DNA from: Cyanophora paradoxa CCMP329
Lineage: Eukaryota > Plantae > Glaucophyta
Direction: 5' to 3'
Length of the DNA stretch: 64,000 bases
Assembly: GCA_004431415.1 (NCBI GenBank)
Contig: QPMI01000054.1
Span: forward strand, 186,001-250,000
The position numbers and the translations under genes were made by a program. This document shows, piece after piece, positions 4,766 to 42,493 of this stretch. Each line of letters opens with the position of its first letter. The first letter of the stretch is position 1. The notes below the pieces were generated by a model, which was given only the letters and a program-made list of their open reading frames with translations, had not been told where the DNA came from and did not search any database.

Positions 4766-5042
4766 CGCAGCCCCCGGCCGGCGTGTCCCTCGGAAGACGG
4801 AGGCGACCTTGGCACGCGCATGAGGGCCGAGCCGACTGTTTTAGAAGCACCTGAATGAATAAGTCTGGGGGCAGGGGAGACGCAGACGGGTATCGATATC
4901 TAACACATCTCAATAAAAAGGCAGGAATTCGAAGCACTGATCATGAGTACAACTGATCATGAGAGACGCGCTGCGGGGGAGGCGGCGGGGGATTGTGGAA
5001 GCGGAAGTGGAAGCAGAGAGACGAATTATGTGAGGAAAGTAG

Positions 5043-8000
5043 TCAAGCGGGGCGGGAAGGCCCGGCCCCGCGGTTGAAAGGGTCGTAGGGACGCGTGGGG
5101 CGGATGGAAGGGCCGCCGGGAGGCAGGTAAGGGCGCGTGGGGCGGGGAGCCAGGGCCGAGGCCGCGGGCGTGAGGGCGACTGCACGAGCAGCAGCAGGCC
5201 CCGCGCTTCCGTTGGAGCTCGAGGGCCCTGGATCCGAGGGGGCCGCGGAGGCCGCGGCCGCGGCCGTGGCTGCGAAGGCCGCGGCCGCGAGGGAAGGCGG
5301 GGAGGGTGCGCGGACGGCCGGAGCCACGGCAGGGCCCGCGGGCGCCAGCGGGACGGAGCTCAAGGCGGTGGAAGGGCCGGCCGCAGGATGGATTACCGCA
5401 GGTAACGCACCAGCGGGGCCGGCAGCCGCGATGGGGTCGCGGCATGTCGGGCAAGTAGCCGATGCCCCCGCCTTCGCTCGCCACGTGTCAATGCAAAGCG
5501 CACAGAAGCAGTCCTGGTCTGCAGAGGCGTCAGCGCGCAGCGCTCGGAAGGCCGTCGGCGAGGCGAAATCGATCGCGATCGACACACGGCCGCAGGAGAA
5601 GAGAACGGTGGAGGAGCTGGCGCCGGCGGCAGCTGCAGCGCCCAGGGACTCGTAGCAGATGGCACACTCGCCCTCCTCCCACGCGGAGCCGACACCAACG
5701 CCGGGCGCGGGTGCAGGCGGCGCGGCGCGGCCGCTGCTCCCGATGTCGATGGCCGCAGTCTTCGCTTCGCCGGCGTGGGAGAACCTGCTCAAGCGAGTGA
5801 TGGGTTGCGCGCGGGCTCGAGGAATCGGAGATCAGTGCGCCGCACCGGCAACGAGCGCCGAACGCGCAGGAGCCCCGCGCGAAGTGCCTGCAGGGTGGCT
5901 GCCTGGAAGGGCCGGCAGCTGCGTCGGCCGCGACGGCGGGGCCGGGGGCAGCGCTAGCGCTGGTCGTGGGTCCTGGAACATGGGCCCCCTCGCGCTGCGA
6001 ATGCTCGGGCTGCTGTGGCCCCGCTGCACGCTGCCGCCGCTCCGCCGCTTCTGGTGCTCCACCCGCCTGCTTCTCTTGCTCGCCGCCCTCGTGTTCTTCA
6101 CGCACGTCTTCTGTCGCGCTCCCTCCTGCCCCCCGCCGTAAGCGCATGGAGGCCTCCACCTTCTGTCGCTCCCGCTGAACTCTGCCAATTTCTGAGCGCG
6201 GGTGAGAGCACCGAGAAACACGACAGCGCACCTCGCAAGCAGATCGCGATCCGTCCCGGCGTCCGAGCTCGAGGCGGCGAGCTCGCACTCCCAGGCCTCC
6301 GCCTCCCGCGCGGCGCCCTCCAAGTCGCCCGCCCCCGCCACGCACTCTGCGCTGGGCTTGAGATGGCTAGAGGCGAAACATGGCAAGAGGGCACACGGAT
6401 GCGGAGCAGGCGCGCCTCCGCGTCTCCAGGCGACCGCTGGACGGTACGGGCGTCAGAGTCGGCACAGATATTTGGGACGTGGACCAGCGATTGCGACAGC
6501 CCTGCCGGACCTTGAGCACCGCGTTGAGCAGCTGGCGGGCTCGGGACCACTTCAATCGCTGCATGTGCCTGCCCGCCGCCTCCTGCTCGGGTGTTAGGGC
6601 AGAGAACTTAGAAGCGGCTGCGCCGGTCACGAGCACCCGGCCGGGACGCACCCGGTCCGTGGCGTCGCGCTCAGTGCTCTCGGCATGCGCACGCTCGGCG
6701 CACTCGGCCTCCCGCCGCGCCCGCTCGCGCTCCGCCTCCGCTCGCTTTGCCTCCTCTCGGACCCGCTTCCGCTCCTCCACCTTGGCCGAGATCTTGCAAT
6801 TGATATTATTTAATGTCGTCTGCGCAAAAGCATTTTAATATGGAAATGCAAACGACGGAGGCGACTCGCACCCGCACTTCGAGAGGATCACCCGAAATTG
6901 GCTCGACGAAAGAAGGCTTGAAGGCCTGGGTGGCGGGGGGGTAAGCCGACGCAAGCAGCCGTTCCGCCGCCTGTGCGGCATTCCTCAGGCCCTTTGCGGC
7001 CGGCAGCTCCGGCACCCGGGCCGTCACCCTGTGCCCGGGTCCATCAGGCCAGGAAATGAGGTGTGCGGCACCAACGCACGCGGAAATGCACTCAGCGAGC
7101 GCAACGATGCTCTTGGCGAGGACTCCAAAGCCGGCCTCGCCAGCTTCCAGGGCCCCCACCAGAACTCCAAAGAGCGCTGATTCCGAGTCGGATCAGATAT
7201 GAGAGGGAGGGAGGGAGGGGAAGGGGAGGGGAAAGAGGGCGAGTGGAGGCAGAAGATGGGCGGGGGTACCGTAGATATCGTCGGATATGAGGGGTACAAG
7301 GCGCCGGAGGCGATTCACGAATCCGGGGTGCTGCAGCGCGTCTGGTTGCAAATGGCGGAAAGATATGTCAACAAGAGAGATCGAGCAGAATGGCGATCGA
7401 GATCTATAGCAAGGCGGATCTCACCGGGGTGCTGGCCCGTAAGGATCTTGCCGACCAGGGCGGCACAGTAGATCGCAACATAGGCTGAGCAGGGAATCTC
7501 GTCAGGGACCAGTGCGTACTCTGCTCGCGCGAGGGAGGGCAGCCCCCGGCTAAGGGATCAGGGCGAACTTCGGTTGATTCGGGAGCAAGCGATGCGCGCG
7601 CCCCTTGGGCCATCGCCAGCAACCGACTCGAAGGCTGTGGGTCGGACGGTGACTGCGGTATGAAGGATGTCGAGCAAAACGGCGAGGCGGGGTCCCTTGA
7701 AGATAGCCAAAGTCTCGTCGGGGGACGTCGGCAAGGAGGCGCATAAGTTCACCAGGTCACCCTGCCCGTTCATTGAAGTCAGCTTGAGCCCAATCCCGAT
7801 CTAAAGATTTGGTCGATATCTCACGATGATTTTGGCCGTGACGGGGAAATGCGGGTCTCGATGGCGCCATACGGCCTGGAGCACGTCCAGCACCGCGTTC
7901 GACGTGCGGGCGCGGTCCCTGGTGAAGATCTTCTCCCAGAATTCATGGCCATTGACATGCAAAAGAGCGTTGATAATCTGTTCACCGCAATTAGATCAAG

Positions 8001-8746
8001 AGTCGATTCACACGGCCGTAGCCGCGCGCGGGTCTACTTCGATCCGGGATCGGTCCGGACCAGGCCGCCCTGCATGGCGAGAAGGTCCGCGGCTGCTCGC
8101 ACGTCTAGAACTACGTCGTCTTCCTCCTGATCAAAGCGCATGCATATGAGCGGGTGATCCCTGTGGACCAGTCGCAGACACTCCTCAAAGCCGCCGGCCC
8201 GCCCGAACTGCAGGTCTACGTTAGCGATGCGCCTGCAGCTGCAGATGCATATGATCGATATCATGACTGCCGCCCGCTCGAGATCGATCGCGCTATCTAG
8301 ACCTAGATCTACGGCCGCGACCCGCGGACCTCGGCAAGCTCCCGTGTGGCAGGCTTCAACATCGTGTCGATGTGGAGGAGCACGTTCTGCACGACGCCCG
8401 AAAGGTGCAGAAACGACCCCGGCGCGCCCTCCCGTACATTCGCAGCGCCGGCGTCAGCCATTGCGGCCGCTCGCCGCAGCACGTACACCAGGTCGCGCGG
8501 CTTGAGTTCGACGTTCTGGTTCGCGAATGCATTCTGAGCGAGCGCTCGGAACTGTCAAAACGCAGTGGATGGATTGCGGCGGCGGCCGCGTGGCAGAGCG
8601 CAGAAGCCTGCTAGTAGCTGCGAATCGAAGCAGCGCGCAGCGTCGCACACCTGGCTCGCCCCTGGCGGCGGATTCGCCCGAAGGAATGACAGGATGGCGG
8701 AGTGCACGAACGGCATCACAGTGCGCTCATTGAATTCGATCGCCAT
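5043..8746 (-). CDS. Multi-exon protein: unknown helical N-domain + coiled coil + CCCH zinc finger + RING-HC finger (putative RNA-binding E3 ligase); complete copy 2 of the triplicated family
   Basis: ATG at 8746 (MAIEFNERTVMPFVHSAILSFLRANPPPG). Coiled coil EERKRVREEAKRAEAERERARRE (~6650-6790). CCCH PCRHFARGSCAFGARC|RFSH (~5775-5895). RING ECAIC...SCG|HQDCFCALCIDTW...CPTCR (~5435-5670). Tail PTRPYDPFNRG, stop at 5043. Confidence 0.75.
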
Positions 8747-8921: not shown

Positions 8922-11900
8922 ATGGGGGTGCGCGGCCTCACCGCGTACCTCGAAAGGAGCGAGGGCACCGCGCAGGACGTGAACCTCACCGAGGTGAGGA
9001 ACAGCTCGAGCGCGCACGCGAACCGCGGGCCGCTTGCCCCACCATCCCCGCACCCTCTCCCGCCGGCCCGTGCAAATGTATTCGCGCGTGGGCCCACGTA
9101 CGATCGCAGGTGGCTGCAGGTCGCCCGGGGAATGAGATCGCACTCGTCCTCGACCTGTCAAACGTGAGCCGGCGGCGCCGCAACCCCGCCCTGCAGCGCA
9201 GCTTCTTTACAATGACTCGATTCGAAACAGATCGCGTACACGCTCATCCAACAGGCCGCCGAAGAAGCTGCGCAGCTGGGCGGCCGCGGCGATGTCGACG
9301 GACCCGCCGCGGCGGCCGGCGGTCGGAGTCTTTACTTCCTCGTCAACATCTCCGGCGGTGCGCCTTCGCGCGTCGACCGGACGGCAGCGCGCGGCGGCGT
9401 CGGCGTCGCAAGCGCGGCGGCGCCAAGCGGTCGCGCGCTACAGCTGACGCGCGCGGCGCCTCCTCAGGCGAGTACGACCTGCTGGACGCGCACGTGGAGC
9501 GCTACTTTGGCCGCCTGCGCGCCGCCGGCGTCCGCGCCCACTGCTTCCTCGACCCCGCCAAGGCCCGCGCCGCCCGCCGCCCGCCGCGCCGCGCGGCGCC
9601 CGTAGAAACGCCAGAGCGCGCCGGGCGCCGCGCCGAGCGCATGCCGACGGATCCTCGCGCGCGCGCGCAGGGGTCGGACGACGACGAGGAGCGCAAGTTG
9701 GCGACGTGGACGGAGCGGCTGATGGAGGACCGGCTCGGCGCGATGGCCCTCCAGAAGTGGTGCTCCACCGGCCGCGGCGCCGTCGCCGTCGGCGGGGCCA
9801 GCGGCGCTACCGGCGGGGGCCCGGGCCCCGGCGCCAGCGCCCTCCGCGTCCCCGTCCCGCCCCTCGCCTTCCGCCAGATCATCCGCACGCTCCAGCGCCT
9901 GCAGGCGAGCCCCCCGGCCCACCGGTCTTATCGTCTTCGGCCCGCCGCTGACCCGCCGCCCGCAGGTTCCTGTCTCCATCTGCACCGGGTGCGCGGGCCC
10001 CCTCTCCTCCGCCTCGCGCCTGCGGGCGACTCTCGCCCAGGGAGGCGGACCAGCAGCTGCTGCACGAGATGCGCCGCCGCGGCGCCTTCGCGATCGTCTC
10101 AGACGACTCCGACTTCGCTGTCATGAGCGGTGCTTTGTTAACAGAGCTCTCAATGCGTCGCGACGCCTCTCGGTGATCTCTCCCCCACCTCAGGGTCCCG
10201 CTGGATCCCGACGCGGACGCTGCGGGTGCCGACGGCGGAGGAGCTCGCGGCGGGCGGCCCCGGCGCCTGCGCCCGCGCCCGCCTCCTGACCCCCGACCGC
10301 GTCGCCGCCGCCCTCGGCGTGCCCCTCCCCGCCTACCCGAGCTCGCCGCGGTGCGCCGTACCCCCTCCCCCCCTCCGCCCCTCCCTCCCTCCTCCCCCTT
10401 CCCCCCTTCCGCCCCGGCCCCTCTCCTCTAACTCCTTGCCCCCCCTCCCTCCCCCGCTCCCCCCTCCCCCTTCCCCGCTCCGCCCCCTCCCCTCTCCGTC
10501 TTTCTCCCCCTTCCCTACCTCCCCCCCCCCCCCCCCCGCCACCTCACCTCCCCTGGGCCCTCCCTCCCTTCCCCCTTCTCCCCCCTCTTCCTCCTCCCCT
10601 CCTCCCTCTCCCCCCCTCCCATCCCCTCCCCTCCCCCCCCTTCCCTACCCCCCCCCCCGCCCCCTCACCTCCCCTGGCCCCTCCATCCCCCCCCCCCTTT
10701 TACTCCCCTCTTTCCCCTCCTCGACCCCTCCCCGACCCCTCCCCCTCCCCCACCTTCCCTTCCCGACCTTTTCCCTCCCCACTTCCCCCCGCTCCGCCCC
10801 CGCCCTCTACCCCCTCCACCCCACCCACCGAATCCCGCCCGAGCCCTTCGACCCCGGTGCAGCTGCTCGGGAACGACGTGACGAAGGCCGCCGTCGCCGC
10901 GCGCGACGTCCTCCGCGCTCTCGGCGTCCCCGCCGCCTGGGGCCGCCCCAAGGCGGGCCGCCCCTCCCCCAGCCCGGCACCCGCCCCCAGCTGAGGGAGC
11001 CCAGGTCGAGGACGTGGCGGCGTGGATCCGCGGGCTCCCCGGCCGCTCCGCCCTCTCCTCCCCGGCCCTCCGCGGTGCGGCTGACCGATTCGATTTCCAG
11101 CGCCTTTCGATCCCGATCGCGCCTCGCGTCTCACTCGCGCGCCCTCGGCCCTCGCAGACCTCCTCGCGCGGCACGCCGACCTGCGCGAGGCGTGGGAGCG
11201 CTCCGCCGCCTTCTACATGTGCGAGGCGCCGCCGCCGCCCACCGCCGACGCCCGCCTCGCGGTAAGCTCTCTCCCTCATTATCTTGCTCGTCGCTCTCCG
11301 CTCACGCCGCCCTCAGTTCCTGGAAGGCGGCGTGGCAGAGGGGATCCTCCCCGGCCACGCCATCGCCGTCGCCCGCTTCGGTGCGCTCCGAGCTCGCCCC
11401 CGCCGCCGCCGGCGCCGCCCGCTCTGCCCCTGACGCGCCCCCGTGGCCAGGGCGGCACTGGAGCTCGGCGCGGGCGGAGTGCGTGCAGTGCAGCCGCTCG
11501 CCCTCCTCGGACGAGCTCGTGGCGCCGCTGCGGGCGGCCGGCTACGCGCTCCTCGGGCGCGACGAGGTCGAGGAGCGCGTCGTCGAGGCCGGTGCCTGGT
11601 CGCTGACGCGCCGCGTCGTGCGGGCCTTCCTCCCGCACGCCGCCCGGCACGTCCCGGACACCTGGGCCGCCCGCGCCGCCCCTCCCGAGGCGCGCCGCCG
11701 CGCCCTCGCCGCCATCCTTCACACCCACATCCCTTCCGCCCCGCCGGACCCGCCGGCGGGTCCGCTGGGCCCCGCCGCCCTCCTCCTCCGCTACCTGCTC
11801 TCGCTGGTGCCGGCGAGCGGGCTGGACATGACCGTCCGCGAGTGGCGCGCCATCCTCCTCACCGTCGCCGCCTGCGCGCGCGCCTCGAGCTCGTCGCCGC

Positions 11901-14900
11901 CCCTCGCGGTCGACGGCGCCCAGCGGGCGGCCCTCGCCCGCTGCGCCCCCTCCTTCCGGGAGGTCCTCGTCGCGTACCGCCTCCAGGCCGTCTTCACCGC
12001 CTGCGCCGGCATCGGCCAGGTCCGCCTCCTTTTTCGATGTCCTCAAATCCTAGATCTAAATCTCTGCTCGGTCGCTCCCGCGCCAGGCCCTGTGGGAGCC
12101 GGACTTCTTCCCCGAGCCGCGGGCCCTCTTCTCCGGCCTCCTCTTCCGCCGCCTCCTGCGGGCCCCGGCGGGCGCCCCCGCGGAGGCCGCGGAGGCGGCC
12201 GCCCAGCTGCTCGCCCTCGTCGCCGCCGCCTTCCCGCCCGCGGGCGAGGCGCACCCGGCCCTGCGGCGCTTCCTGTCCGTGGATCTCCGCAATGCCGGCC
12301 CCCCGGCCGCGGACCCCGCGGAGAAGGAGGCGGAGGAGGAGGTGCCCCTCCACAGGGACTGCTGGGAGGAGGTGGAGGCCCTCTGGGACGAGGAGGGCGA
12401 CTCGTGCGGAAATGCTCACATTTCGAGCTTCCTTAAGCTTGTAAGAAGTCTCACTGCCCGGCAGGGACGAGGACGTCGAGGCGATGCTGGAGAGCGCTGC
12501 GGCCGGCGCCGCGGAGCGCCCGCCGACGTCGACGTCGCCCCTGTCCGCGGCCGCGGCGGCCGGGCCTCCCTTGCAGGACGGCCTCCTCCCCATCGGTGCG
12601 CCCGTCGCCTCGCAGCCTTCAATCTGAAATGCAACTGACGGCCTCGCGATTGCAGACGCGCACAAGAAGAGCATCCTCGAGCACATCGCCCGGCACCGCG
12701 TCACTTGCATCCAGGGCGAGACCGGCTCGGGCAAGGTCCGGCCCCTTCTTCTGATTCTTTCTCTTCTTCTGTTTGGTTGACGCCGCAACGCGCGCCGCCC
12801 CGCGAAGTCCTCCAAGCTGCCCGTCTTCCTGCTGGAGGAGGCCCGCAAGGCCGGCCAGGAGGTGCGCCGCCCGCAGCCGCCCGCTCCGTTTTCTTCGCCG
12901 TCGCCACAACGCCGCTAGCAGGTGCGGATGGTGATCACGCAGCCGCGCCGCATCGCCGCCATGTCGCTCGCCAAGCGCGTCGCCGACCTCGTCGGGTGCA
13001 AGCTCGGAGGCGAGCCGCCTTCTTGAGCTTCGGCTTATAGAACCCGCTCTGTCTGATGGACATCTGCAGAAACGGTCGGATACTGCGTGTCTCGGGATCG
13101 TGCCGTCTCACCGCGAACTCGGGTTACCTACGTGACGGGTCCGCGTTAGCCGCGTTTTCTGACTCCAGCTTTGAACTGACCCGGTGCGATTTCGCGAATG
13201 CAGTCGGATACCTCCTGCAGGTCAGAGCTGCATCCGGTAGAGATGCGCGTCGGGCTCCAAGTTTATTTATTGTCGCCTCTTTCGCTGCGCGCGCAGCTCC
13301 TGTCGCACAAGCCGGCCGAGGCCGGCCGCTACACGCACATCTTCCTCGTGCGCCGCCTCCAGCTTCGCCTTCGAGAGGGCGACTCGCTTTGCTCTAGATC
13401 CCATTGTCCGCGGACAGGACGAGGTGCACGAGCGCGGGGTGGACCAGGACCTGCTCAGCCTGCTGGTCAAGGTGCGTTATATACCAAATTTATGTATACA
13501 TAAGCCTTGCATGATTTCAATATTTAATCCTGTACATGTACAGCTGCTGCTGAAGAACCATCCTTCGGTCAAGCTCATCGTCATGGTGCGCGAACTTCAA
13601 TGTTTTTGTCTTCGCAAATTTAAATCGAAACGAGCGAATCATGACCATGCATATGCATGATTCATTGAATCTCACCGATGCAAAATGAAATCTGAACGCG
13701 AACGCCTTCGGCGCAGTCTGCAACGCTGCACGCGGAGCTGTTCTCTCAGTACTTCGCCGACCTCTCGTGAGCCCGGAGGAGACTTCAGCTTGCGAGACCA
13801 TATGCTCAGCTCACATTGCTGCTTGCCCTTCGACAGGGATGACGACGCGCCGCCCGCGCCCATCTTCGTCGGCGCCGCGCGCTACCCTCTCGAGTGCGTC
13901 GCGATCGTCGCAAGCCGACTCGCCCGCATCTCTTCATGACGGGCGCGCGCCTCGAACTCCCGCAGGTTCCTGTACCTGGAGGACCTGCCCTCCAAGTTCA
14001 GCGCCAGGCGCTCCATCGCCCCGCTCGTCAAGTCGCTGCTCTCGCAGGCCCCCTTCAAAAAGGGAGCCAAGCAGCAGGCCCCATCGAGCGAGGTCGGCGC
14101 CGGCATCAGGAAGGAGATGTTCGCGCTCGCTGTGGATCTGCTCGCCGCCATTCTGTCGCCCGGCAAGGCGGGCGCGGCCCCCGCCCGCATTCGATGTTAA
14201 CGTTTTGATTTCAGCTGAAATTTAACTGGTAACGGGTCTTTTATGCAGACTGTTCTCGTTTTTCTGCCCGGAATCGCGGAGATGACCACCCTACAAGTGT
14301 GCACGCTCATGCGGATCCCTTCGATCTGCTTCGGATCCCTACATCTCCTGATATCGCGATCGCCCTCTGCTCTTCACCAGATGGACGTGCAAGAGAGGAT
14401 CGCGGGGGCCTGCGACGGCTCCCTGGTCGAGGTCCTCCTCCTCCACTCAACCATGCCGCGCGAGGAGCAGGTCCGCGCTCCACCGCCGTCGCCTCTTATG
14501 TAGATTGTTCGCTCGTCTTCGCCCTGACCCCGGCGCAGGCTGCCGCATTCGCCCCGCTCAACGCTGGTGCGGAGTTTTGTAGAGCTTGCAAGCGCAGCTA
14601 CGTATACGCTTCTATTCCGCCTGACTGCCGGGCCCAGCGCGCTCGCGGCTCATTCTGGCGACGAACATTGCCGAGTCGTCCATCACGCTGCCCGCGGTGC
14701 GCCTCGAGCTCGTGTCTTTCCACTCTCTCAGCTCTACCTAAGAGGGTTCTCGGCCTCGTGCGCCCTCATGATCAGGTCCACTATGTCGTCGACTTTGGAC
14801 TGCACCGCCAGATCGTGCTGGACAAGGCCCGGGGCGTGCAGGTGGGCCGACCGCCGCGTGCGGCTCGATCTTAAAATCCGTGATCGTGACATTCCGCGCG

Positions 14901-17900
14901 CTCCGCAGGGCCTCTCCCTCTCCTGGTGCTCCCGGGCCTCGTGCAAGCAGCGCGCGGGCCGCGCCGGGCGGCTCTTCCCGGGCACCGTCATTCGCCTGAT
15001 GTCGAAGTGCGCAGCTTTCGTACATGAATATGTCCGCAGAGAGATCTCTGACTCGACCTCTTATTTTGCTCGCAGAGACTTCCACGATAGGGCGCTACCG
15101 GACTTCGAGAAGGCGGAGATGCTGCGAATTTCGCTCGAGCACGCGGTGCGCATGCCCGCACGAAGAAGGCGCAACACAGGCCTGCAGCTGCACCTTCCAG
15201 CTCACCGGCAGATCTGGCGCAGATTTTGCGGGTCAAGATACTCTTCGCACATTTCGGGACGGTGCGTCAACGTTTGAAGTTTCGAACGTGACTGCATTTA
15301 TCGTTTCGGATGATTGCGACGCGCCCCTCAGGTTCGGGAACTTCTGGCTCGGGCGGTAGAGAGTCCCACCAAGGAAGAGATCGACCACGCCCTGCGCGAG
15401 CTCTACTTCGCCGGTGCGCCGCCTTACGTGTCGCATATGCATTCGAATTCTATTTTCTCTGCGGCCTGTTCGCCTCGCTAAAACGTTGGTCAGGTGCGAC
15501 CACCGGCGAGGAGGAGGACGCGGGTGTCACGCTGTTCGGACAGCTCGCGTCGGCGCGTGCTCCCACTGATGCCGCTGTCGCCACTTGTTGCGTACGTGGT
15601 TCCTGCTCGAATCTGACGCGGACGGCCGCGTGTACAGGTGATGCCGGTCGGGCTGACGGCCTCCAAGCTGATCATGTACGGCCTGCTCTTCCACGTCGAG
15701 TGCGACGCCGTTTGCATGGCCGCCGCCATGGCCGTCCAGGTCAGCCCGCGGTTCATACATGCATTCGGCGGCGGGCGATTCTCCATTATTGAACACGAGC
15801 TCGGGAAAACAGGACCCCTTCGCGTCGCCGACTCAAAAATACACAACCGATGTGAAAAAGGTGAAATAATCGTTATGTACTGTGTCTACAAATAGCTAGT
15901 GTGCGTCTTTTGATTTGTTTTCTGCGATGCTCAGTACTGCGAAGACCTCGCGCGGAGCTTCCGGTCGCGCACCTCGTGCGTCGCTTGCGTCAGCGTCGAT
16001 ATCTCGTGCACTGTTAAATAGTCCGATCAGATTCGACGAGGGAAATTACTCGGAACTCATCGCGTTTCGCAACGTGTGGATCGGTCCGTTCAATGTGTCC
16101 TTATTTAAATTTATGCAAGAGATCAACGTGCGCCTGCAGACTGGACGCGGGCCGGCAGAAGGCGCGACTGGACGTACAACAACTGCGTCTCTTTCGAGAG
16201 GGCGCGCAGGAATCCCGCCGTCCTCCGCTCCGTCGGCGCGGGAGCGACCGGCGCGCGCAGATGCGGGCGTTCGACGCGACGGTGGCCGACGTCGCGACGC
16301 ACTTCGTCGGGTTCCTCTCGAGGAACGGCGCCGACGTCGACGGCCTCCCCGGCCTCGTCGGTTCGTCTCGGCCCGCGGCGATACAAATTTCGAATCCGCC
16401 ACACAGCTGGTTTACCTGCATCTGAACATCACCCCGCAGCGATGAGCCAGCGATGGAAAGAGGACGACAGTGCCGGTGCGTTTGACGCTAACGTGACGCT
16501 TTCGAATTCCTGTTTGCCGCCTTTGATTTGAACGGTCCCTCTCAGAGAGCTGGACGAGTGACGCCTTCAGCTCTAACGCGCCCCTCCTCAAAGCGGTCAT
16601 CGCCCTCTCCAGTCGGCCGGGATTCTTCCTGCGCCCCGCGCCCGCCCAGGCGGAGCGCACTGGGATAAAGAAGATCCGCGCGGCGATGCTCACGGCCGGT
16701 CTGGAGCCGTCGCGCACGCTCCAAGTCACGCTCGGGATCAGCGGTGGCTCCGCAGCTGCAGCGGCCCGCGAGTTCACTCCGGCGGACTTCTCCGCTCTCC
16801 TGCGCGATCTACTGGACGTGAAGCCCGAAAAGGTGCGCCGAGCCCCCAGAAATCGTCTCCCGTTTCATTTGCGATGTCTTACATCTTGCTCTTCGAAATG
16901 GGGTCTGCAGGTCGTCAAGGATGAAAACTCGAAGAGCGTTTTCTACGTTCAGTTCCGCGCCGACAAGCCCAAAGGACCTTCTCATGGCTCGGACGAAGCC
17001 GTCATCCACGTGCCTCCGAATTCTTTCGTTTGGGCTTTCTCTCTTCGCTAAGGCTGTTCTTTGATTGCAGGATTTGCCTAAGGATGCAAAGCTGGTTCGG
17101 TACTTGACGGGAGTGCTCTCATTCCAACAAAAATTCAGCTGCCCGTTGCGTCCCGAGGCGCGCAGGGGGCCAATAAGTCCGGAAGAACCCATGGTGCGTT
17201 TTTGCATTGGTGTAAATGCTTGAACAGTGCCACGGTGGAAAAAGTTTACAAGTCTCTGCAGGTTGTGTTTGAAAGCATAGTTCAGCTTGGAGGCTTCATG
17301 TGGCGTGCGATGAAGCCAACATGCACCGTTCGTTGCTCCATGCACACTTTGCATTGCTTCACCGCTGCTGCCATTGACTCCCAATGTGGATGATAACCGC
17401 AGGCGAAAGCGGACAGGCGGACGCCCTTATCGAACGCATCCGAATTCGACGCCGTCGAAGCTCTTTGGGTATGTATACTGTATCGCGTGTGCTTGTCACA
17501 GCGTCGTCATTATACCTGGCCCTTTCGCGCAGGCCGTGGCATCGGATGCGCAGCTGCAAGGGAACAATCTGTTCGTGTCAGGGACAACAGTTCTCCCCAG
17601 AGGTGCCGGCGCTTGCTGTTGCAATTCCCGTATCGGGCGCTTTAATTTCTATATCTGATCTGGGCTCGCGTCGAGCAGGCCACTTTGGCGCGCTGCTGCT
17701 GCTCGCGACGGGCATCACGGAGCACGGCGAGGGCGAGGAGGTCGGCAGGCCCGTGCGGCTGTACGTCGACCGGCAGCTCACGCACATCCACTCGGCCGCC
17801 CTCCCCGGGTCGCCCACCACCTTCTCCTTCGCCCCGCACTTCCCGTCCCTCCGGGAGACCGTCGAGAAGCTGAACCGCCTCCGCGCCTGCCTCTCCGCCT

Positions 17901-20900
17901 CGTACGCGCCGGGGATCTGGCCCCGCTCCTCCGAAGTCCGGCAGGTCTCCGGAGCTCTATAGCTAGCTTGTCTTTCGTCGCGAATTCGCTTGATTTTACT
18001 CGCAGGCTCTGGCGGATTTGTTGGCGTGTGTGCCTTCGGAGCCGGCAACTTCAGCGAAACCAAGTTCGAAGAAGGACGAGCAGTACCGCTGGGTCAGCCT
18101 GCCCACGGCCGAAGACGGCGCAGCCGAGCGGCCGTACGCGTTCCTTCCGCCCTACGTCGGGCCCATCGCGGTGCGCAAAGACAGACGCGTGGGGCCCCAG
18201 ACTCTGCGGCCCGCTCACGTCCAGTGCAGGAGGGCGACATGGCTCTGCACGCCGCCGGGGAGGACCTCGCCGTCCTGAGGGCGCGCGCTGCCTCCTGGAG
18301 CCTCCGCCCCGCGAAGGCGGAGCGCCGGCACGCCGACCTGGAGGCGCGGAGCCCCCTCGTGGACGCGAACCTTCGCGAGGAGGACAGGCACCTCGCGGCC
18401 TGCATCGATCGCATGTTCTCCCAGGTTCGTCGGTCGCGATCGGACCTCTGCTCGTTTATTCCTTGTCTTTAATTCTAAGACCCGGGGGCCGGGTCGCAGT
18501 TGGAAGCTTTGTGCAAGTCGGGCAATGGCCAAGAGCTCGAGCTCGAGGGATCGCCCGAAGTGACAGTGTTCTCGCCCCAGACTCAAGAAGATTTCGATCT
18601 AGATCTGGACGCGGAATATGATGAGACAGGAGTCGACTCTGCGTATACGTACGCGTCGGCGTGCGTGTGGCTGGCCAGCAGCGCCGTCGACTCGAGCAGC
18701 GAGCGCCGTGTCTTGAGTTGTCAGGTTCGTTCTCGTTTGCAGCTTAAGCTGTTCTCTTGCCGCACGGAATTCGAATCGACTAAGAATTTTGTTTTTCGCT
18801 TCAAATTGCAGGAGGCCCCGTCGATGCTGGACGCGATAGCAGCCGCCGTCAGCTGTGCCCTGCAAATTTCGAAGGGGAGAAATTCGACTCCCGCAGCTGC
18901 AGCGGTGGCCGACTTTGTGGGCACTGTTTCAAACTCGGCTCCAGTTCGGTTTTCATCGATTGCCGGCGGTACCGGTGCCTCGAGCAAGGCGCAGCTGCGG
19001 CCGTCGACGTCGGCAGATCTAGAAGCGGCTTCTGATTCGGCACAGCCGTCGTCCAAGTTCGCCAGTGATTGTTCGTCGCAACCACCGGCAGGGTCTGCGC
19101 CTGCTATCAACGCAGCAGCTCCGCCTCCAAGGCCACCTCCCCTCTCAAAAGGCGGAAAACTCATGTGGGACCAACTTCTCGAAGTGCGTAAATCTTATTT
19201 TTTCGTCTTTCTCTAGATCTATCATCACCGCTTCGAAACGTTCACTGACCCGCCTCTTAATTTCGACCAGACCTGTCAAAGGCGCTCGCTCTCGGCTCCC
19301 ACATACTCGTGTGCACTCAACTCCGACACTTGCTCCATGCAGGTTCGGCATTCTCGAACCTTGAACCTTGCGAATTCCGAAGTGATGATTGTGTGTGTGC
19401 ATTTGCAGATCTGCATCGGGGGACAGGTCTATGAGCAGCGCCTTCCAGCCAAGGTCGTTCAAGAGGCTTTCCAAGTGCGCGAGCGAGTGCGAACGCGTGC
19501 ACTCTGAGGCATCGTCCTTAACGATGTGCATGTGCTCGCGGCAGGCGGCGCTTCGAAAAGCGCAATTGCACGCGAGCGCAATTCCAATTCGTGAGCTAGC
19601 AGGTGTGGCGAATGACGCAGACGGTCGGGGGACAGCGGAAGCGTCTGCATCACCTCTGGCAGCATCGATGTCGAGTTCGCATGTACCATTGCAAGCCTCG
19701 CCAAGCCCGGTGCCGGTGGTGTCGTCGCAATTCCAAGACGTGCCAATGCCTGTGCCTGCGGAAGCCGCCTGGTGTCATAATCAGCCACAGCGAGTTCCGG
19801 ATTCAAAAGAAGAGACCTCAACTGCAGCTGCGGGCGTCGGATCTTCCGTTGCCATCGCTTCCGATTCAATGTCGACACTGCCACCCGACCTCCTGCCTTT
19901 CATCAACAGCCACGACCTCGCCCTTTGGACGGAGCTCAACCAGGTGCCCTCGAATATATATTAATCCGAGCGAACGTCGAATTTATCGCATCACGGACCA
20001 ACGTTCCCGTATGCAGGAATGCCGGCTGCGGGGACTCGACCCGCCGGAGGCAGGTGCTGAGGTGATGAAGGCGGACAATGGCGATGCCCTGCTGCTACAC
20101 ATTCGGGTTTGCTTCTCGAGCACCTATTTCTAAGCGCTATTTAACAGGTACGTGCGCAGATGTATGTTGGCCTGCCGGACCCGGGCTCCGAGCAGCACGG
20201 CTGGTACTGCCTCACAGCCGGGTGCGCTCAGCTCGAAGAGGACGTCCGCGGTTCCCATCAATTACAAGAAGCCTGCGTTCACGTGCGTGTAGTTCAACTT
20301 GCCGCGCTCGAAATCGTAACTAATTCGAAGTGCCTCCGTTCACAGATGGCATTCGAGCCCGCCGTGCGACGAGCGCTCGCAACCGTGCGGCAAGTCCCGG
20401 CTGAAAGCGAGAACCCGGGGATGAGTTTCGAGGAGAAGAAGGCTGCTTGCTTCGGCTGTTTCGGGAACCACAGCGACGCGGAGAAGCAGTGGCAGACCCT
20501 TCAGCGGGTACGCGAATGCAGAATATCCTAATCCGTTTCACTGGAGCTTGAGCGCGTTTTTTCGCAGCTCTGCGCTGAGCGACAGCTAGACGCGCCTCTT
20601 TGGCAGCTGTACAGCCCAGAAAATGGAAATGCACTGGTCGAGGTGCGACTCGAAATCTCTAAGAGTCTTTAATTTTTAAACGTTGTCACCTGCAATCGAT
20701 ATCATCGAACATCCACACATGCATATGCAGGTCGTCGTCCGTGGCCTACAAGGCCCAGGGAGCGCCAACAGCTACACTGGACGGAGTTCAAGTTCTGCAG
20801 CCGCCGCCCACGTGAGCAGTCGCTGTGGACGCAATGTGTAGCCGGTCTCATTGCACGCTCGCGCAGTTCGCAATGCAGCAGGCCATACCGGCTGTACGAA

Positions 20901-23591
20901 TGTCGAAGCCTAAATTGAAACAAGTCGATTTCGGAGCGGCGAAAGCCACCTCGAGCGAAAAAGAGCGCACGAAAGAAATCAAGACATCCAAACCGTCCAA
21001 AGCATCGAAGGCTTCCACAGTCAATTCTCTTCCGTCAGACCTCGCTCGCCTTCTATACGGTTCGAGTCTCGATCTCTGGAAACTACTAGCTTCGGTGAGT
21101 CGACTTTCTTAGATCACGATCCATGTATACTTGGAAATCTGCGCGATATTAATATCGTTATTTATCGCTGCTGCGGATTAATGTTACATTCAGGAATGCG
21201 AAGCGAGGGGCTTGCAAGCACCTTCAGTTGGCTGGAATTCGGATAATGCTGGCAAGGAGACCCCGAGGGTGCGAGTGAAGGTGAGAGCAAGCATTGATAT
21301 CGACTTGCATTCAAAGTCGCAGATTGATATTTACAATCCACGTGCACACGTCTCAGGCTGCTGTGCAACTCTCGCTGCCTTCCGCATCGGGAAAAAAACC
21401 GAAACCGGCTTGGCGCCTCATTGTGACGACCAAAGCGCTGACCAAAGACATGAACAAACAAGCAGACGTGAATGCTGAGGGGGTGAATGTGCGCGCGATT
21501 TTGCTTCTAGCTGCACTTTATTTCAGATCTCAGATGAGCACGCAGGGAGCTTTTGGAGAGCTTATTCACCAGTTGTTGGGCGTTGCTGGAAACATTCCTG
21601 TGCGCATTTCCATCGCACCGATCCCGAATTACTCTCTTATATAATTACCTATTATGATCGACAGAGGAGCCCGATACTGGAAGCGGATACAATTGCACAA
21701 TGCGACGCCGCCAGCTTACAAGGATCCCCAACGTTGACTGCGAAATGGGCGGAGCTGAAAGAAGAGTGTAAGAAGCGCGGATTTCGCGAGCCAACTTGGA
21801 CCTCGGCTCCTACATCGGTGTGGAAAGTGAAATGCCACGTGCGTTTACGGGGGAGCCTGCCGCGAATGTTGCGTAGCCTGGAGCCAAAATACTCATGTGG
21901 CGCAGGTGCATATTTCGAACGGGGCCGATGTGCAAACCATTTTCGCAAAAGGCTCATCCACAGAGGATGTCCTAGAGGTGCGACATATAATTCGAGCTGC
22001 GAACGTTTTTAATCGGTGCAACTGATCATCCGCATGCGCATTTGTGTCCCAGATTGCATTCGGGCGCGCGATGAAACTTGTAGCTGGCCACACTTTCCGA
22101 GCAGAAGCATATGGTTCCAAGAGTCATCATCAGGACTTTAACGAAGACAAAGACAGCAGCGATTCGTCCAGTGACAGCGGCAGCGAATCACGAATTGAAT
22201 CTCGTCAAGCGGTCTGTGCGCGAGATGCTCTGGAGCCAAAGCAACCGAACCATGATGCGGATTTCGGCTTCCCCCTCGACAATTCCAGCGCTGAGGCCTG
22301 GCGCGAGCTGCTGCAGGCGCGCATCTCCGTTTATCAGAGCCGCTCTGCTCTAAATCTGCTCTACTCGTTGTACGGAACGCTTTGCTCACATGTCGGGCAG
22401 GAATGCAAGCGGGCAGGCCTGGGGCCGGCTTCCGTCCGCCGGGATGTTGCGGGCACGTCGAGCGCGAGCTCCGTGAGCGTTCGGGTGGATATAGAGGTCC
22501 GCATTCCGCACAATTATTGCAGAATATCACGACCTCGAGGCCTCACGACTGGGCTCCTTGCGGGTGCAGGTCGGCTCCCTCTCGAAGTTCGCATGTCGGA
22601 AAGGGCCGGCGGCGGAAGTCGTCGAATCCTCGAACGTCCGCTCTTTGAGCTGTTTGCGTTTAGGAAGGGAACCGCCGACCCGTCGGGGGCAGGTGGCGTT
22701 CGCGATGGCGGCGAAGGCGCTGCTCCGCGAGATCTCGACCTCCAGCTCCGCACCCGCTGCAGAGGAAGCTTTGAAGCAGCCCGTGCCCGCGGCCGCCTCT
22801 TCGAAGCCGCTGGAGACGGAGGAGCAGTGCCAGAGGCGAGAAGCGGCGGCGGCGGCAGCTGGCCTGGCTGCAGCAGTCGCGATCACCGGGCTCGGGAAGC
22901 AGACGAAGAAGAAGTGGAATGAACTCCTCCTTGTGCGTTTCGCCTTCTGCGGTTTTCGCTCACGACCTGATCATGAGCTTGCTGTTCGCAGAGATGCGCT
23001 CAGGCGGGCCTGCTCACTCCGGAGGTTGTGATCAGCCCGCCAGCAAGCGCTGCAGCGCCCTCTGGATCTGGATCTACGTCGTCGACCGCGAAAAGACCAT
23101 CTAAATCTGCCCCCGCGTCCTTGTGGCGAGCTCTCGTGCGCACACTGCCGTCCCCGCATCGAATTCGCCGAAAATTCACTTTGCCTCTCTTCCTTCAGCT
23201 CTCGATCCACAAACGCGATCGCGGGTCCGCGTCGGCGTCGGATCCGGAAGTGGCGAAGCCCTTCTTCTCGTACACGGGAGAAGGGCCCTCCGGCATGAAG
23301 GCGCTGCAGGTATCCGTTGGAAGCGCAGATGCGTTTCACGTCTCTAGATCTGATCGGGAACACCCTCGAATTTTGCAGCACGCGGTCGAGCGAGCGGTGG
23401 AATGCGAAGTTCTGCGGATGAGGGCTTTGTTTGTTTCCCAGAAATCTAAATTAAATGCTAGTGCGAGTTAACGATGCAGATTTATATCGGCTAGAGAAAG
23501 ACGAGATTATGCTCAGACTGCTTGTGGAAAACTTGCAATTGTCGGCGCCTGTTGTCGGCGCCTGCAGCTGTACATGTTCGCCTGTGTCTGA
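8922..23591 (+). CDS. FAM120/Asteroid-type PIN-like domain fused to a DEAH/RHA RNA helicase (HA2) and 7-8 degenerate dsRBD-like repeats (many exons; 3' end approximate)
   Basis: PIN: MGVRGLTAYLE, LVLDLSN, GGEYD, FLDPAK, KLATWTER, EADQQL, IVSDDSDF, LAALLGND. Helicase: LPI|DAHKKSIL, QGETGSGKS (~12710), TQPRRIAA, DEVHER (~13418), M|SAT, VFLPG, LHS, ATNIAESSITLP, QRAGRAGR (~14948), HA2 region TLFGQLASVMPVGLTASKLI. An in-frame splice joins the two parts (..EEGDS DEDVEAM.., intron ~12404-12464). Confidence 0.8.
10352..10858. repeat. C/T-rich low-complexity intron (poly-C runs; G-rich on the minus strand)
   Basis: About 500 nt of CCCCT-like runs between exons ..YPELAA| and |LLGNDVTK. The Pro-rich ORF read through it is an artefact. 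Confidence 0.75.
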
Positions 23592-24381
23592 ATGTTTGAT
23601 CGGCATTTTATAATTATAAATACGACCACTTATGCCGCTGCGAGCGCGCTGGACGACTCACTGATCCATAATATTGTGAGCTTGTTTCAACTTTTTCACA
23701 GCGCTAGCTGCAGGAACCTGTGGAGCGGGTCTTCCGATCCATCCGTCTTCTATCCGTGTCGATCCGTTTTCTATCTGTATGGAGGGTGAGAGAAAACGTT
23801 TCGGGCCTTGAATACAATGATGCCAGGATGGTACCCCGCTGCAGCTGGTACCCATGGCCATGGCCATTTATATGCATGCTTGTACGTTGCTTACTTCAAG
23901 GCTTGTGCCCCGCCTAGTCTCGATATTGTGATTGATAACATTGTAATTGATAACAAGCCACGAGGCTCCCAGCCCAACCGGTTTCCAGCTTTGAAAAGCG
24001 GAGCGTAGCGCGCGATTGAGCGGGATCCCCTAGGTCTAGCCCCCGTCCCCGCTCACTCGTTGAGCGGGGACGGGCGTTAGGCCTAGGGGAGGCCGGGGGG
24101 CTACGGTTGGGCGGGGGAGTGGGGGCGCGGCGGGGCTGGGCCGGGGGGAAGCGGGGGGGCCCAGGGGCGATTCGCGGGGAGGAAGCAGCCTCGGGGGTAA
24201 GGGGCGGAGCCTGGAGGGGAGGGGGGGGGGGGGGGGGAGGATTGCGTGGCACGCAGCGTCTAGCCTTTCGCAGGTGGGAAGAAAATCAATCAAATTTGAA
24301 AAGCCACATGCTGGAGCGACACTAGACTTCCACGTGCACCAAGGGCTGTCCAGATGCACGTATCTAGCTATAGTGCGCTGG

Positions 24382-26386
24382 CTATTCGTAGGGATGCTCC
24401 CAGGAAGTCTTGAAGGCCTGGGCGGCGGGCGGGTAGGCCGCCGCGAGCCGCCGCCCCGCCGCCTGTGCGGCATTCCTCAGGCCCTCGGCAGCTGGCAGCT
24501 CCGGCGCCCGGGCCGTCACCCTGCGCCCGGGTCGATCAGGCCGGCCGGGAGAAGGGGGGGACGGGGTACGGGAGGGGGAGGGGGGTACGGCGCCGACGCA
24601 CGCGGAAGTGCACTCGGCGAGCCCGGCGATGCTCTTGGCGATCCCGACGGGGCCCGACTCGCCGGCCTCCAGCGCCCCCGCCAGCACTCCGAAGAGCGCT
24701 GCCCCCGCCCGCGCGTCAGATCCGGTAAGAAAGGAGGGGGGGGAGTGGGAGGGGGAAGGAGTGGGGGAGTGGGGGCGGCGGCGGCGGCGGAAGAAAAGGG
24801 GGGGGAGGGGAGGGGGGGGAGGGGGGGGAGGGGGGGAGGCGGCGGGCTCGTGGGGGGGGAGAGAGAGAGTGGAAGGGGTACCGGAGATGTCGTCGGCCAT
24901 GCGGGGTACGAGGCGCCGGAGGCGGTCAACGAATCCGGGGTGCTGCAGCCCGTCTGGTTGCGATCGGTGGATCGTGAACGACGAGTAACGGAGAGAGATC
25001 AGAATGGAGAGACGCTCGGATCTCACCGGGGTGCTCGCTCGTTAGGATCTTCCGGACCAGAGCGACGCAGTAAACGGCCACGTAGGCTGAGCAGGAAATT
25101 CGGTCAGGGAACAGGGCGGTCTGCGACGGGAGGGCGGCCGCGGGCCGAGGGAACAGGCGGACTTCGGTTGACGCGGGAGGCGCCGATGGGGCGCGCGCCC
25201 TTAGGGACATCGCCGGCCACCGGCTCGAACGCCATGGCAGAGTCTGCGATCAGATTTATTAGAAAAGATTTGAATAGCGTTCCACAACCTCGGCGCGCGC
25301 ACCGGAGCTCTCTCGGGCGGTGGGCTGGACGGTGACGGCTGTGTGAAGGATCTCGAGCAGCAAGTCGAGGCGGGGCCCGTCGTAGATCGCGAAGGCCTCG
25401 TCGGGGAGCGTCGGGACAAGGGCGCACACGTTCACGAGGTCGCCCTGCGCGGCGCTCTTAATCGAAGTCGACCCCCAATACGATCGGAAGATTTGATCTC
25501 ACGATCATTCTGGCCGTGACGGGGAACCAGGGCGCGCGTGGGCGCCAGGCGGCCTGCAGCGCGTCCAGCAGCGCTTTCGACGTGCGGGTGCGGTCTCCGC
25601 TGACGATCTTCTGCCAGAACTCGGGGCCGCCGAGCAGAAGATGGTTTATAACCTGTGCCGTGCACGTCAAGGTTGATTCGAGCAGGCGAACGTCGATTCG
25701 GGATCGGACCAGGCCGGCCTGTGCCGCGAGAAGGTCCGTTTGCACATTCGAGGTCTCTCTGTCGTCTGCGGCGCCGGACCTGGTCGCGATTTCCTCGCAC
25801 AAGCGCAAGAGCGGGTGATCCCTGTGGACCAGTCGTAGACACTCCTCAAAGCCGCCGGCCCGCCCAAACTGCAGGTCTACGTTAGCACTAGTACTGCGCA
25901 TGCAGCTAGCCCTGCAGCTGCGCATACAGATGACTGCCGCCCGGCCGCTCGAGCTCTAAATCTACGGACCTCGGCAAGCTCCCGCGTGCCAGGCTTCATC
26001 ATCGTGTCGATGTGGACGAGCACGTTCTGCACGACGCCCGAAAGGTGCACGTACGACCCCGGCGCGCCCGCCGGTACATTCGCAGCGCCGGCGCCAGCCA
26101 TGGCGGCCGCTCGCTCCATCACGTACGCCAAGTCGCGCGGCTTGAGTTCGACGTTCTGGTTCGCGAATGCATTCTGAGCGCGCGCTCGGAGCTGTCAAAA
26201 CGCATTGCATGGATTGCGGCGGCGGCCTGATGGCCGCGTGCTGCAGCCTGCTAGTAGCCGATAACCGAAGCAGCGCGCAGCGTCGCACACCTGGCTTGCT
26301 CTAGGCGGCGGGTTCTCCCGAAGGAATGACAGGATGACGTCCTCTGTGCGCCCCTGGCCAAGGCCGATGAACCGGGAATCCGCCAT
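24382..26386 (-). CDS. Copy 3 of the triplicated family; N-terminal helical domain only, with no coiled coil, CCCH or RING (truncated gene or pseudogene)
   Basis: Starts MADSRFIGLGQGRTEDVILSFLRENPPP and is colinear with copy 2 up to AYPPAAQAFK. It then diverges to TSWEHPYE* (stop 24382). Confidence 0.65.
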
Positions 26387-26610
26387 CTTCGATGCGCGCA
26401 CCCGGGCTGAACTCGCTGCGTCCGCGCCGCGCTATGCTCGCCAAGCGAATGTGCCTTTGGCTTTTCCGGGTACGCTGTGTCGCTGCCTGGTTGGGGTACG
26501 CCTCTCTGCAACCGCCACTCGCTGGCCGTCACCGGAGCCAGGCGGTGCGCTAGCTGCAGCTTCGTTATCCCAAAAGCTACTGGTTAGCCTGCACCTCGAG
26601 CGCGGGCGCG

Positions 26611-41633: not shown

Positions 41634-41790
41634 GAATGTGCACCGCCGGATTGAGACTGCGTTCATGGATAGTCCGGCAGTCTCACCTAGACGGCACTAG
41701 ACGCTCTTGGGGGAGTTACGTGCGCCTGTCAGAGCACGGTTCCGGGTTGTGGGCCCGGGACCGCTCCGGGCGTATAGCGAGCCCCCAAAT
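41634..41790 (-). ncRNA. Box H/ACA snoRNA, copy 1 (3' pocket guides the LSU A-loop uridine, i.e. the yeast snR10 / human SNORA21 site)
   Basis: The minus strand folds as hairpin - AGAGCG (H-like box, 41702-41707) - hairpin - ACA (41637-41639) + 3 nt. The 3' pocket GGUG / CAAUCCG pairs with rRNA GGAUUG-U-U-CACC. The 5' pocket UCGCUAU / ACGU pairs with GCGU-U-C-AUAGCGA. Each pocket is 14 nt from its box. Confidence 0.85.
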
Positions 41791-41873
41791 AGAATTAGAA
41801 AGCGACGGAAACGAACGCCAATTTGATGGGGGCGGGGCAGCCTGGCAGATGGGACTATAGCGGGATCGGGATC

Positions 41874-42030
41874 GAATGTGCACCGCCGGATTGAGACTGC
41901 GTTCATGGATAGTCCGGCAGTCTCACCTAGACGGCACTAGACGCTCTTGGGGGAGTTACGTGCGCCTGTCAGAGCACGGTTCCGGGTTGTGGGCCCGGGA
42001 CCGCTCCGGGCGTATAGCGAGCCCCCAAAT
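41874..42030 (-). ncRNA. Box H/ACA snoRNA, copy 2
   Basis: Identical to copy 1 at a 240-bp period. Differences between repeat units fall in the 83-nt spacer. Confidence 0.85.
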
Positions 42031-42113
42031 AGAATTAGAAAGCGACGGAAACGAACGCCAAATTGATGAGGGCGGGGCAGCCTGGAGGATGGGACTATAG
42101 CGAGATCGAGATC

Positions 42114-42270
42114 GAATGTGCACCGCCGGATTGAGACTGCGTTCATGGATAGTCCGGCAGTCTCACCTAGACGGCACTAGGCGCTCTTGGGGGAGTTACG
42201 TGCGCCTGTCAGAGCACGGTTCCGGGTTGTGGGCCCGGGACCGCTCTGGGCGTATAGCGAGCCCCCAAAT
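42114..42270 (-). ncRNA. Box H/ACA snoRNA, copy 3
   Basis: Two substitutions versus copy 1: one in the hinge (42181) and one at 42247 that converts a G-U into an A-U pair in the 5' hairpin. Similarity stops essentially at the predicted RNA 5' end. Confidence 0.85.
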
Positions 42271-42493
42271 CGAATACGAGAAACGAAAATGGCGGTGGCG
42301 CAGGCGGAAAGGGGCGGCTTCGTGAGGTTCAGCGACGGGAGGCGGCGGGGGCGGGGGCGGCGAGTGGCGGCGCGCGATGAGAAGGGCATACAACGTATCT
42401 GCACTGATCAGCAAAAGCACGCAAACCTATGCTAGCCTGGGAATGTACACGCTAGGGGAGAGGAGGAGGAAAGGGAGAGAGCTAGGGGAGCGC

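Follow-up and report, generated by a model that had tools for sequence, protein, structure and literature searches.

A predicted FEN-like nuclease fused to a DEAH/RHA helicase in the glaucophyte Cyanophora paradoxa

We analyzed a window of 64,000 nucleotides (nt) from Cyanophora paradoxa CCMP329 (assembly GCA_004431415.1, contig QPMI01000054.1, positions 186,001 to 250,000, forward strand; coordinates below count from the first base of the window). One locus in the window likely encodes a single protein of about 2,900 residues, composed of a FEN-like nuclease, a helical linker, a DEAH/RHA helicase and seven repeats. Sequence comparison indicates that the gene is a glaucophyte member of a widespread nuclease-helicase family, which has been tabulated but is uncharacterized. 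The repeat tail has so far been seen only in Cyanophora among the sequences compared. An earlier prediction, made from the DNA alone, had proposed a self-contained RNA surveillance or antiviral enzyme with a PIN-like nuclease, a helicase and an array resembling double-stranded RNA-binding domains (dsRBDs).

Results

The nuclease and the helicase are fused

Our hand-built model starts at an ATG at 8922, ends with a stop codon at 23469-23471, and encodes 2934 amino acids (aa) including one X in 75 exons. All motifs quoted in the original prediction are found in this one exon chain. Those of the nuclease are LDLSN at residue 38, FLD at 111, EAD at 203, SDDSDF at 222 and GND at 287; those of the helicase are GETGSGKS at 753, DEVH at 853, SAT at 885 and QRAGRAGR at 1098. 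The intron at about 12404-12464, proposed to join the two halves in frame, is exactly 61 nt long, GT..AG and in phase 2. The EukProt model of the gene, P0001, splices the junction identically. The splice sites score 4.9 bits (donor) and 3.1 bits (acceptor), at the low end of the range for 31 introns inside an RNA contig.

The same fusion is found in a paralog and in distant eukaryotes. The Cyanophora paralog P0003 (2424 aa, encoded on another contig) is colinear with the model, with 51% identity over 1858 columns, and 22 of 24 residues match across the junction. With the nuclease-only paralog P0002 as query, a search of 1.84 billion representatives gave 33 matches, 30 of them non-Cyanophora. 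The helicase Walker A motif is present in nine of these 30 and a complete helicase in four, while 20 are 185-773 aa long, too short to tell. Twenty proteins were looked up, and the named fusions are from the jakobid Andalucia godoyi, the choanoflagellate Salpingoeca urceolata and the sponge Sycon ciliatum. The Salpingoeca fusion is a complete open reading frame (ORF), named from a transcript assembly. A family profile search returned 16 matches, with only one new fusion (P0044). The spacing between GND and Walker A is 466 aa here, 457-529 aa in 12 of 13 other fusions and 324 aa in P0044. Fusions of similar spacing occur in all three named lineages. In the ESM Atlas, DEAD and Helicase_C are found in two clusters (scores 0.93) of 51 and 81 members, of which 25% and 63%, respectively, also have XPG_I.

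The nuclease tree contains 23 rows, several with long branches or skewed composition. Eleven fusion rows are placed apart from four ASTE1-like rows (99/96). The window gene pairs with P0002, nested in the P0003 clade, and the fused state is therefore likely ancestral. P0002 is probably either a copy that shed the helicase or a split gene model. On comparative grounds, the fusion is real. The junction in P0001, the junction peptide in P0003 and the fusions in distant eukaryotes support the single polypeptide originally predicted.

The nuclease carries a complete-looking set of active-site residues

A nuclease profile built from 20 helicase-free rows matches FEN-1 (E 4e-11) as well as Rad2 and EXO1 (E 1e-7 to 2e-7), and the acidic motifs fall into register in these alignments. 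FEN-like domains have six core acids, a further H2TH/H3TH Asp and an arch Lys (PMC5499597, section 14). The six core acids in the window gene are D39, D113, E203, D205, D224 and D226. The arch pair K125/R132 is also present, and is aligned to the arch region of FEN-1. D289, the Asp of GND, is reached only across a break in exon 8 or via a weaker acceptor. These residues are highly conserved among 25 other rows (two of them from Cyanophora paralogs, and two from nearly identical proteins of Sycon): D39 is kept in 23, D113, E203 and D205 in 22 each, D224 and D226 in 25 each and D289 in 24, and K125 and R132 are each found in 21. The active site proposed in the original prediction is thus complete-looking and its acids conserved, with the reservation that GND depends on the exon-8 break or the weaker acceptor.

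The nearest named relatives, identified with the family profile, are four stand-alone Asteroid-type proteins (E 2e-24 to 6e-12). The likeness to P0053 covers hidden Markov model (HMM) positions 1-424. XPG_I_2 (PF12813) has no match above cut-off in P0001-P0003, and one of 30 relatives passes. FAM120, to which the original prediction likened the nuclease, is not among the named relatives returned, and no FAM120 sequence was compared. The residue pattern suggests that the nuclease is ASTE1/FEN-like with a complete-looking set of active-site residues, and nuclease activity is predicted.

Neither the arch helix nor the EAD motif is present in the P0002 model (EukProt tig00021314_g20115), so that P0002 may be a catalytically dead protein or the product of a faulty gene model. 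Its single-sequence AlphaFold prediction has a mean predicted local distance difference test (pLDDT) score of 39, too low for use.

The helicase belongs to the DHX9/29/36/TDRD9 neighbourhood

As originally predicted, the RHA-type helicase is intact, with motifs I-VI all present. P0001 shares the helicase core and the following region with Spindle-E/TDRD9 and the DHX9/29/36 group (E 1e-74). Among solved structures, the closest relatives are Spindle-E, DHX29, DHX36 and DHX9. Spindle-E is the top PDB match for two of four queries, P0001 (254.8 versus 225.4 bits) and the family profile (475.5 versus 449.6 bits). DHX29 versus Spindle-E scores 231.5 versus 231.2 bits with the Sycon query and 210.1 versus 200.3 bits with the Andalucia query. 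The Andalucia and Sycon members are automatically named spindle-E. The family profile aligns to DHX36 and Spindle-E well beyond motif VI, and its match to Spindle-E stops at Spindle-E residue 725.

In the region following the core, HA2_C in P0001 is below cut-off (E 0.005), and OB_NTP_bind has no Pfam match in P0001. A resemblance of the post-HA2 region to the TDRD9 RRM is not supported by the alignment to Spindle-E. A Tudor domain is listed as a trait of Spindle-E/TDRD9 in a table of PMC12147562. None was found in P0001, P0003, P0012, P0019, P0034 or 56 single-exon pieces. The helicase tree has ten rows, without TDRD9, DHX9 and DHX36, and five rows without a full motif match were dropped; its fusion clade (100/99) has long branches and is not relied on. 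Together, the matches indicate that the family sits in the broad DHX9/29/36/TDRD9 neighbourhood. Between the two enzymes, the linker scores 17.8 bits against an HMM of non-Cyanophora linkers.

The tail contains seven repeats

Seven repeats of about 70 residues are located at residues 1979-2860. Their core motif, W-x2-L-x3-C, occurs eight times, seven of them in the repeats, compared to a mean of 0.03 in shuffled sequences. An HMM of five P0003 repeats scores 49.3 bits against the tail of the window gene, and the maximum in shuffles is 6.9 bits (200 run, 161 reported). The reverse test gives 27.8 versus 4.0 bits. A phase-0 intron is found at the equivalent position in six of the seven repeats. 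The shared core motif and the same-position phase-0 introns indicate that the repeats arose by internal duplication.

The original prediction had described this tail as a dsRBD-like array. The repeats stand, and no evidence for a dsRBD passed any test. Pfam gave no dsrm match in P0003 at E<=1, and none in the 56 single exons (which split the repeats), where five proteins have chance-level matches only. An ESM Atlas search with the tail returned a best score of 0.76 and no dsRBD, and Foldseek with the P0003 tail model found nothing at E<=0.001. The VIA-align comparison listed no dsRBD in 50 rows, with a best Z of 5.9 to unrelated chains, which does not exclude the fold. dsRBDs carry a basic KKxAK motif, and this motif is not evident in the repeat alignment. 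In the P0003 tail model, which is of low confidence (mean pLDDT 49), two of five repeats adopt a helix, two strands and a helix. We conclude that the repeats are genuine and that their modelled pattern may be dsRBD-like, the fold being unproven. The repeats were not found in the tails of Andalucia, Salpingoeca or Sycon, and the core mechanism proposed below therefore does not include them.

Gene model and transcripts

The coordinates of the gene are given in Table 1. The 74 introns have a median length of 70 nt, with 66 GT and 8 GC donors, and 73 CAG and one AAG acceptors. P0001 equals the hand-built model at residues 1-231 and 315 to about 1880; it omits exons 8-9 and terminates before the end of the hand-built model. 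Along 8922-23471, the GC content at third codon positions (GC3) declines: it is 0.93-0.97 for nuclease and linker codons and 0.63 for those of the tail.

Table 1. Features of the fusion gene in the window
Feature	Position	Strand	Remarks
Whole coding sequence (CDS)	8922..23471	+	75 exons, one X at exon-8 break; transcript reaches at least 23636
FEN-like (XPG_I/XPG_I_2-type) nuclease, predicted	8922..11074	+	exons 1-10, aa 1 to ~337
Exon-8 one-base shortfall	10326..10350	+	exon end, adjoining short C runs
C-rich low-complexity intron	10351..10862	+	512 nt, longest intron of the gene
Mostly helical linker	11158..12595	+	exons 11-15, aa ~338-732; partly family-conserved
Junction intron	12404..12464	+	61 nt, GT..AG, phase 2
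DEAH/RHA helicase core	12656..15006	+	exons 16-32, motifs I-VI intact
Post-core region	15076..18424	+	aa 1117-1793; HA2-like part weak, remainder colinear across family
Seven ~70-aa repeats	19142..23114	+	core W-x2-L-x3-C, low-complexity linkers between

Read evidence came from four runs (X1, X2, X4 and X12) over 10860-23800. X1, X2 and X4 are from two studies, X2 and X4 being one sample. Thirteen GT..AG joints, from 18421 to 21355, are present in X1, X2 and X4 and absent from X12. The spliced joints show that X1, X2 and X4 contain RNA. The offset between the model and a 5983-nt contig of X4 is the same at seven anchors, from 16546 to 23379, and the contig would start near 14275. A 5102-nt contig of X1 keeps a constant offset at three anchors. 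This agreement is partly built in, as the tail exons were placed from those joints and lengths. A single spliced transcript spans the helicase's second half together with the whole tail. The RNA contigs run without splicing through 23374-23628, and the CDS therefore ends at 23469-23471. The gene end originally predicted, 23591, would need an intron that is absent from the RNA contigs.

Further upstream, a micro-exon at 13204-13220 is spliced in RNA, and RNA pieces of a single exon each are found at 11450-11733 and 12124-12404. Spliced expression of the gene is seen in two studies. Non-canonical joints at 11420 and 14955, with sides of 20-21 nt, were assigned to other transcripts. The 31-mer at 12375-12405, which occurs once in the window, forms a separate X12 contig with a depth of 20, and the flanking contigs have depths of 9 and 11. 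It may be common to a paralog with the same exon end and donor.

The break in exon 8

Exon 8 (10194-10350) lacks one base needed to stay in the frame leading to GND, and a strict reading of the model reaches a stop at codon 289. P0002 and P0003 are in frame through the equivalent helix into GND. Against an HMM built without Cyanophora rows, the nuclease region scores 337 bits. On such an HMM, the N-terminal part reaches 341.4 bits when an X fills the break, and the EukProt form scores 245.9 bits. An alternative in-frame acceptor at 10844 gives 310.5 versus 341.4 bits. The likeliest cause of the shortfall, though unproven, is an assembly slip among the C runs.

Neighbouring DNA

A decayed partial copy of the 5' end of the gene is found at 1400-2200 on the plus strand, 80.5% identical to 8989-9628 over 668 columns. 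Its start codon is apparently lost, and the likeness ends near residue 145. Three copies of a spliced gene of no named family, 68-75% identical, are located on the minus strand at 6800-8730, 1-1308 and 24400-26413, and Pfam gave no match among ten ORF pieces. One copy is head-to-head with the fusion gene, about 200 nt apart, and was duplicated together with its 5' end. A CCCH zinc finger (E 4e-6) and a weak RING finger (E 0.001) are found in neighbouring frames at 5040-6370 on the minus strand, which we take to be a Makorin-like arrangement. The window also contains a tandem repeat at 41634-42275 with a 240-nt period (about 98% identical), and two more duplicated stretches at 5068-6743 (88% over 101 nt) and 58736-60306 (66% over 547 nt). 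A 65-nt imperfect inverted repeat, 24026-24090, is located directly beyond the 3' end of the fusion gene.

Discussion

Proposed mechanism

DExH ATPases translocate 3'-5' on single strands (PMC5473145). We give about an even chance to an enzyme that couples unwinding to cutting, with double-stranded or structured RNA as its probable substrate. Its motor would be loaded onto a single-stranded 3' tail and travel 3' to 5'. The partner strand would be displaced from its 5' end, creating a 5' flap at the moving fork. Such a flap is the classic substrate of FEN-like enzymes, which are structure-specific junction nucleases. The nuclease would thread the 5' end under its helical arch and cut the flap. 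One strand would thereby be destroyed, much as in resection, rather than being diced into small RNAs of set size. In Cyanophora only, the tail repeats may add substrate or partner binding.

RNA is favoured as the substrate because the best solved helicase relatives are Spindle-E, DHX29, DHX36 and DHX9. The likely role would be removal of aberrant, transposon or viral duplex RNA, and a surveillance or antiviral function is a reasonable candidate. The Dicer-like logic of the original prediction finds no support: Pfam detected no PAZ or RNase III in P0001, P0003 or the exon pieces, and FEN-like enzymes cut at junctions. PADLOC returned generic P-loop matches only, and a search with P0006 found no relative in viral contigs, which is weak evidence.

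Several observations weigh against an RNA-resecting enzyme. DHX9 and DHX36 act on DNA and hybrids too. The solved nuclease relatives act on DNA, and the PDB labels 8vv2 a DNA/RNA helicase. Human ASTE1 is a DNA endonuclease reported to trim 3' overhangs (PMC9894118). As the closest characterized nuclease, it argues against an RNA substrate and against strict 5' polarity. The same fusion could instead be a genome-maintenance enzyme, resolving R-loops, G-quadruplexes or RNA:DNA hybrids or trimming DNA ends, which would make it the single-chain counterpart of a helicase paired with EXO1 or ASTE1. The characterized nuclease relatives returned (FEN1, EXO1, Rad2/XPG and ASTE1) all act on DNA, and DHX36 and DHX9 are high in the helicase ranking. 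However, this helicase class acts mainly on RNA, and three divergent paralogs, a decayed 5' copy, all in one genome, and tails that vary among lineages would be more like a conflict gene than a repair gene. We consider genome maintenance, the main alternative, unlikely, with an appreciable chance of being correct.

A Spindle-E-like factor, processing or trimming silencing RNAs in a small-RNA pathway (the Dicer-like idea at its broadest), is rather improbable. Spindle-E is the top PDB match for P0001 and the family profile, and the Andalucia and Sycon proteins bear its name. Mkt1, a catalytically dead FEN-like protein, serves RNA interference silencing in fission yeast (PMC7026591). However, DHX29 equals or outscores Spindle-E for the Sycon and Andalucia queries, the profile match to Spindle-E extends no further than its residue 725, and no Tudor, PAZ or RNase III match was found in the proteins searched.

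The exon-8 shortfall could leave this copy without a full-length protein, which also weighs against our reading of the locus. The family would then be genuine and this copy decaying, through a true mutation that leads to a stop near residue 289 or to use of a weaker acceptor, harming the H2TH helix. The shortfall stands in the assembly, P0001 omits exons 8-9, a decayed partial gene copy is located nearby (1477-2200), and the frame-keeping acceptor at 10844 exists, scoring lower (310.5 versus 341.4 bits). However, the remaining motifs are all intact across 2,900 codons, GC3 is 0.93 in the nuclease exons, and two studies show expression and splicing of the gene. The break is located among C runs next to a low-complexity intron, and long-read assemblies drop bases at such sites. 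The chance of a decaying copy is slim.

Some further points weigh against our reading: no spanning read of the junction 12403/12465 is found among the joints and pieces listed, and P0002 and another relative, P0013 (1202 aa), have no helicase. Two adjacent genes joined only by gene prediction are barely credible: RNA depth is low at 12588-13883, P0002 ends at about the junction and an ATG at 12483 could begin the helicase, but only about 80 nt would be left for a terminator and a promoter, the junction peptide is kept in P0003, and other organisms have single ORFs covering both halves.

Relation to known systems

The proposed unwind-and-cut enzyme resembles several known systems in part. Dicer is a motor-nuclease unit, but with RNase III and PAZ; DDX60 is another, but with a Ski2-like motor. 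RecQ/BLM with RecJ/EXO1 are separate DNA enzymes with the polarity logic proposed here. FEN1, EXO1 and XPG-Rad2, structure-specific 5' nucleases, share the acidic pattern and the arch Lys/Arg, and the H2TH Asp as far as the exon-8 break allows, and the matched solved entries are all without a fused helicase. Spindle-E/TDRD9 and DHX9/29/36 share the helicase core and the following region, whereas the window family has an N-terminal nuclease and no Tudor domain detected. PhoH2, composed of PIN and helicase, also has a motor feeding a nuclease, but these are a VapC-type PIN and a PhoH ATPase (PMC5499597). Asteroid/ASTE1 (XPG_I_2, PF12813) provides the nearest named nuclease relatives. Unlike the fusion nucleases, which are on a separate side of the tree, ASTE1 is stand-alone and functions in end-joining as a DNA endonuclease (PMC9894118).

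The original prediction knew of no characterized protein with this fusion, and we found no paper characterizing it in mostly non-subscription literature. The architecture is nevertheless widespread, and is listed in Supplementary Table S1 of PMC5499597 (2017). In that table, at least 14 oomycete rows (13 Phytophthora, 1 Albugo) are XPG_I-cluster proteins with XPG_I, DEAD and Helicase_C (and HA2); they make up 14 of the 15 Helicase_C rows listed. The words 'Phytophthora' and 'DEAD' are absent from the main text; the architecture was tabulated automatically, without discussion. The oomycete proteins have the same domain list and an N-terminal PIN position, a likeness by domain list only.

Implications

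The union of a FEN-like nuclease and a DEAH/RHA motor, each with an apparently intact active site, is present in Discoba, Glaucophyta, choanoflagellates and a sponge; oomycetes share it as judged from their domain lists. This raises the question of whether an RNA helicase can drive a FEN-type nuclease to degrade duplex RNA. It also raises the question of the origin of the piRNA (PIWI-interacting RNA) helicase Spindle-E. One quite unlikely scenario is an ancient, repeatedly lost defence enzyme for single-chain RNA resection, with its tail retuned per lineage, from which animal Spindle-E/TDRD9 would have been derived by loss of the nuclease and gain of Tudor. Should the family target viral or transposon RNA, microbial eukaryotes would possess a defence arm that does not depend on Dicer.

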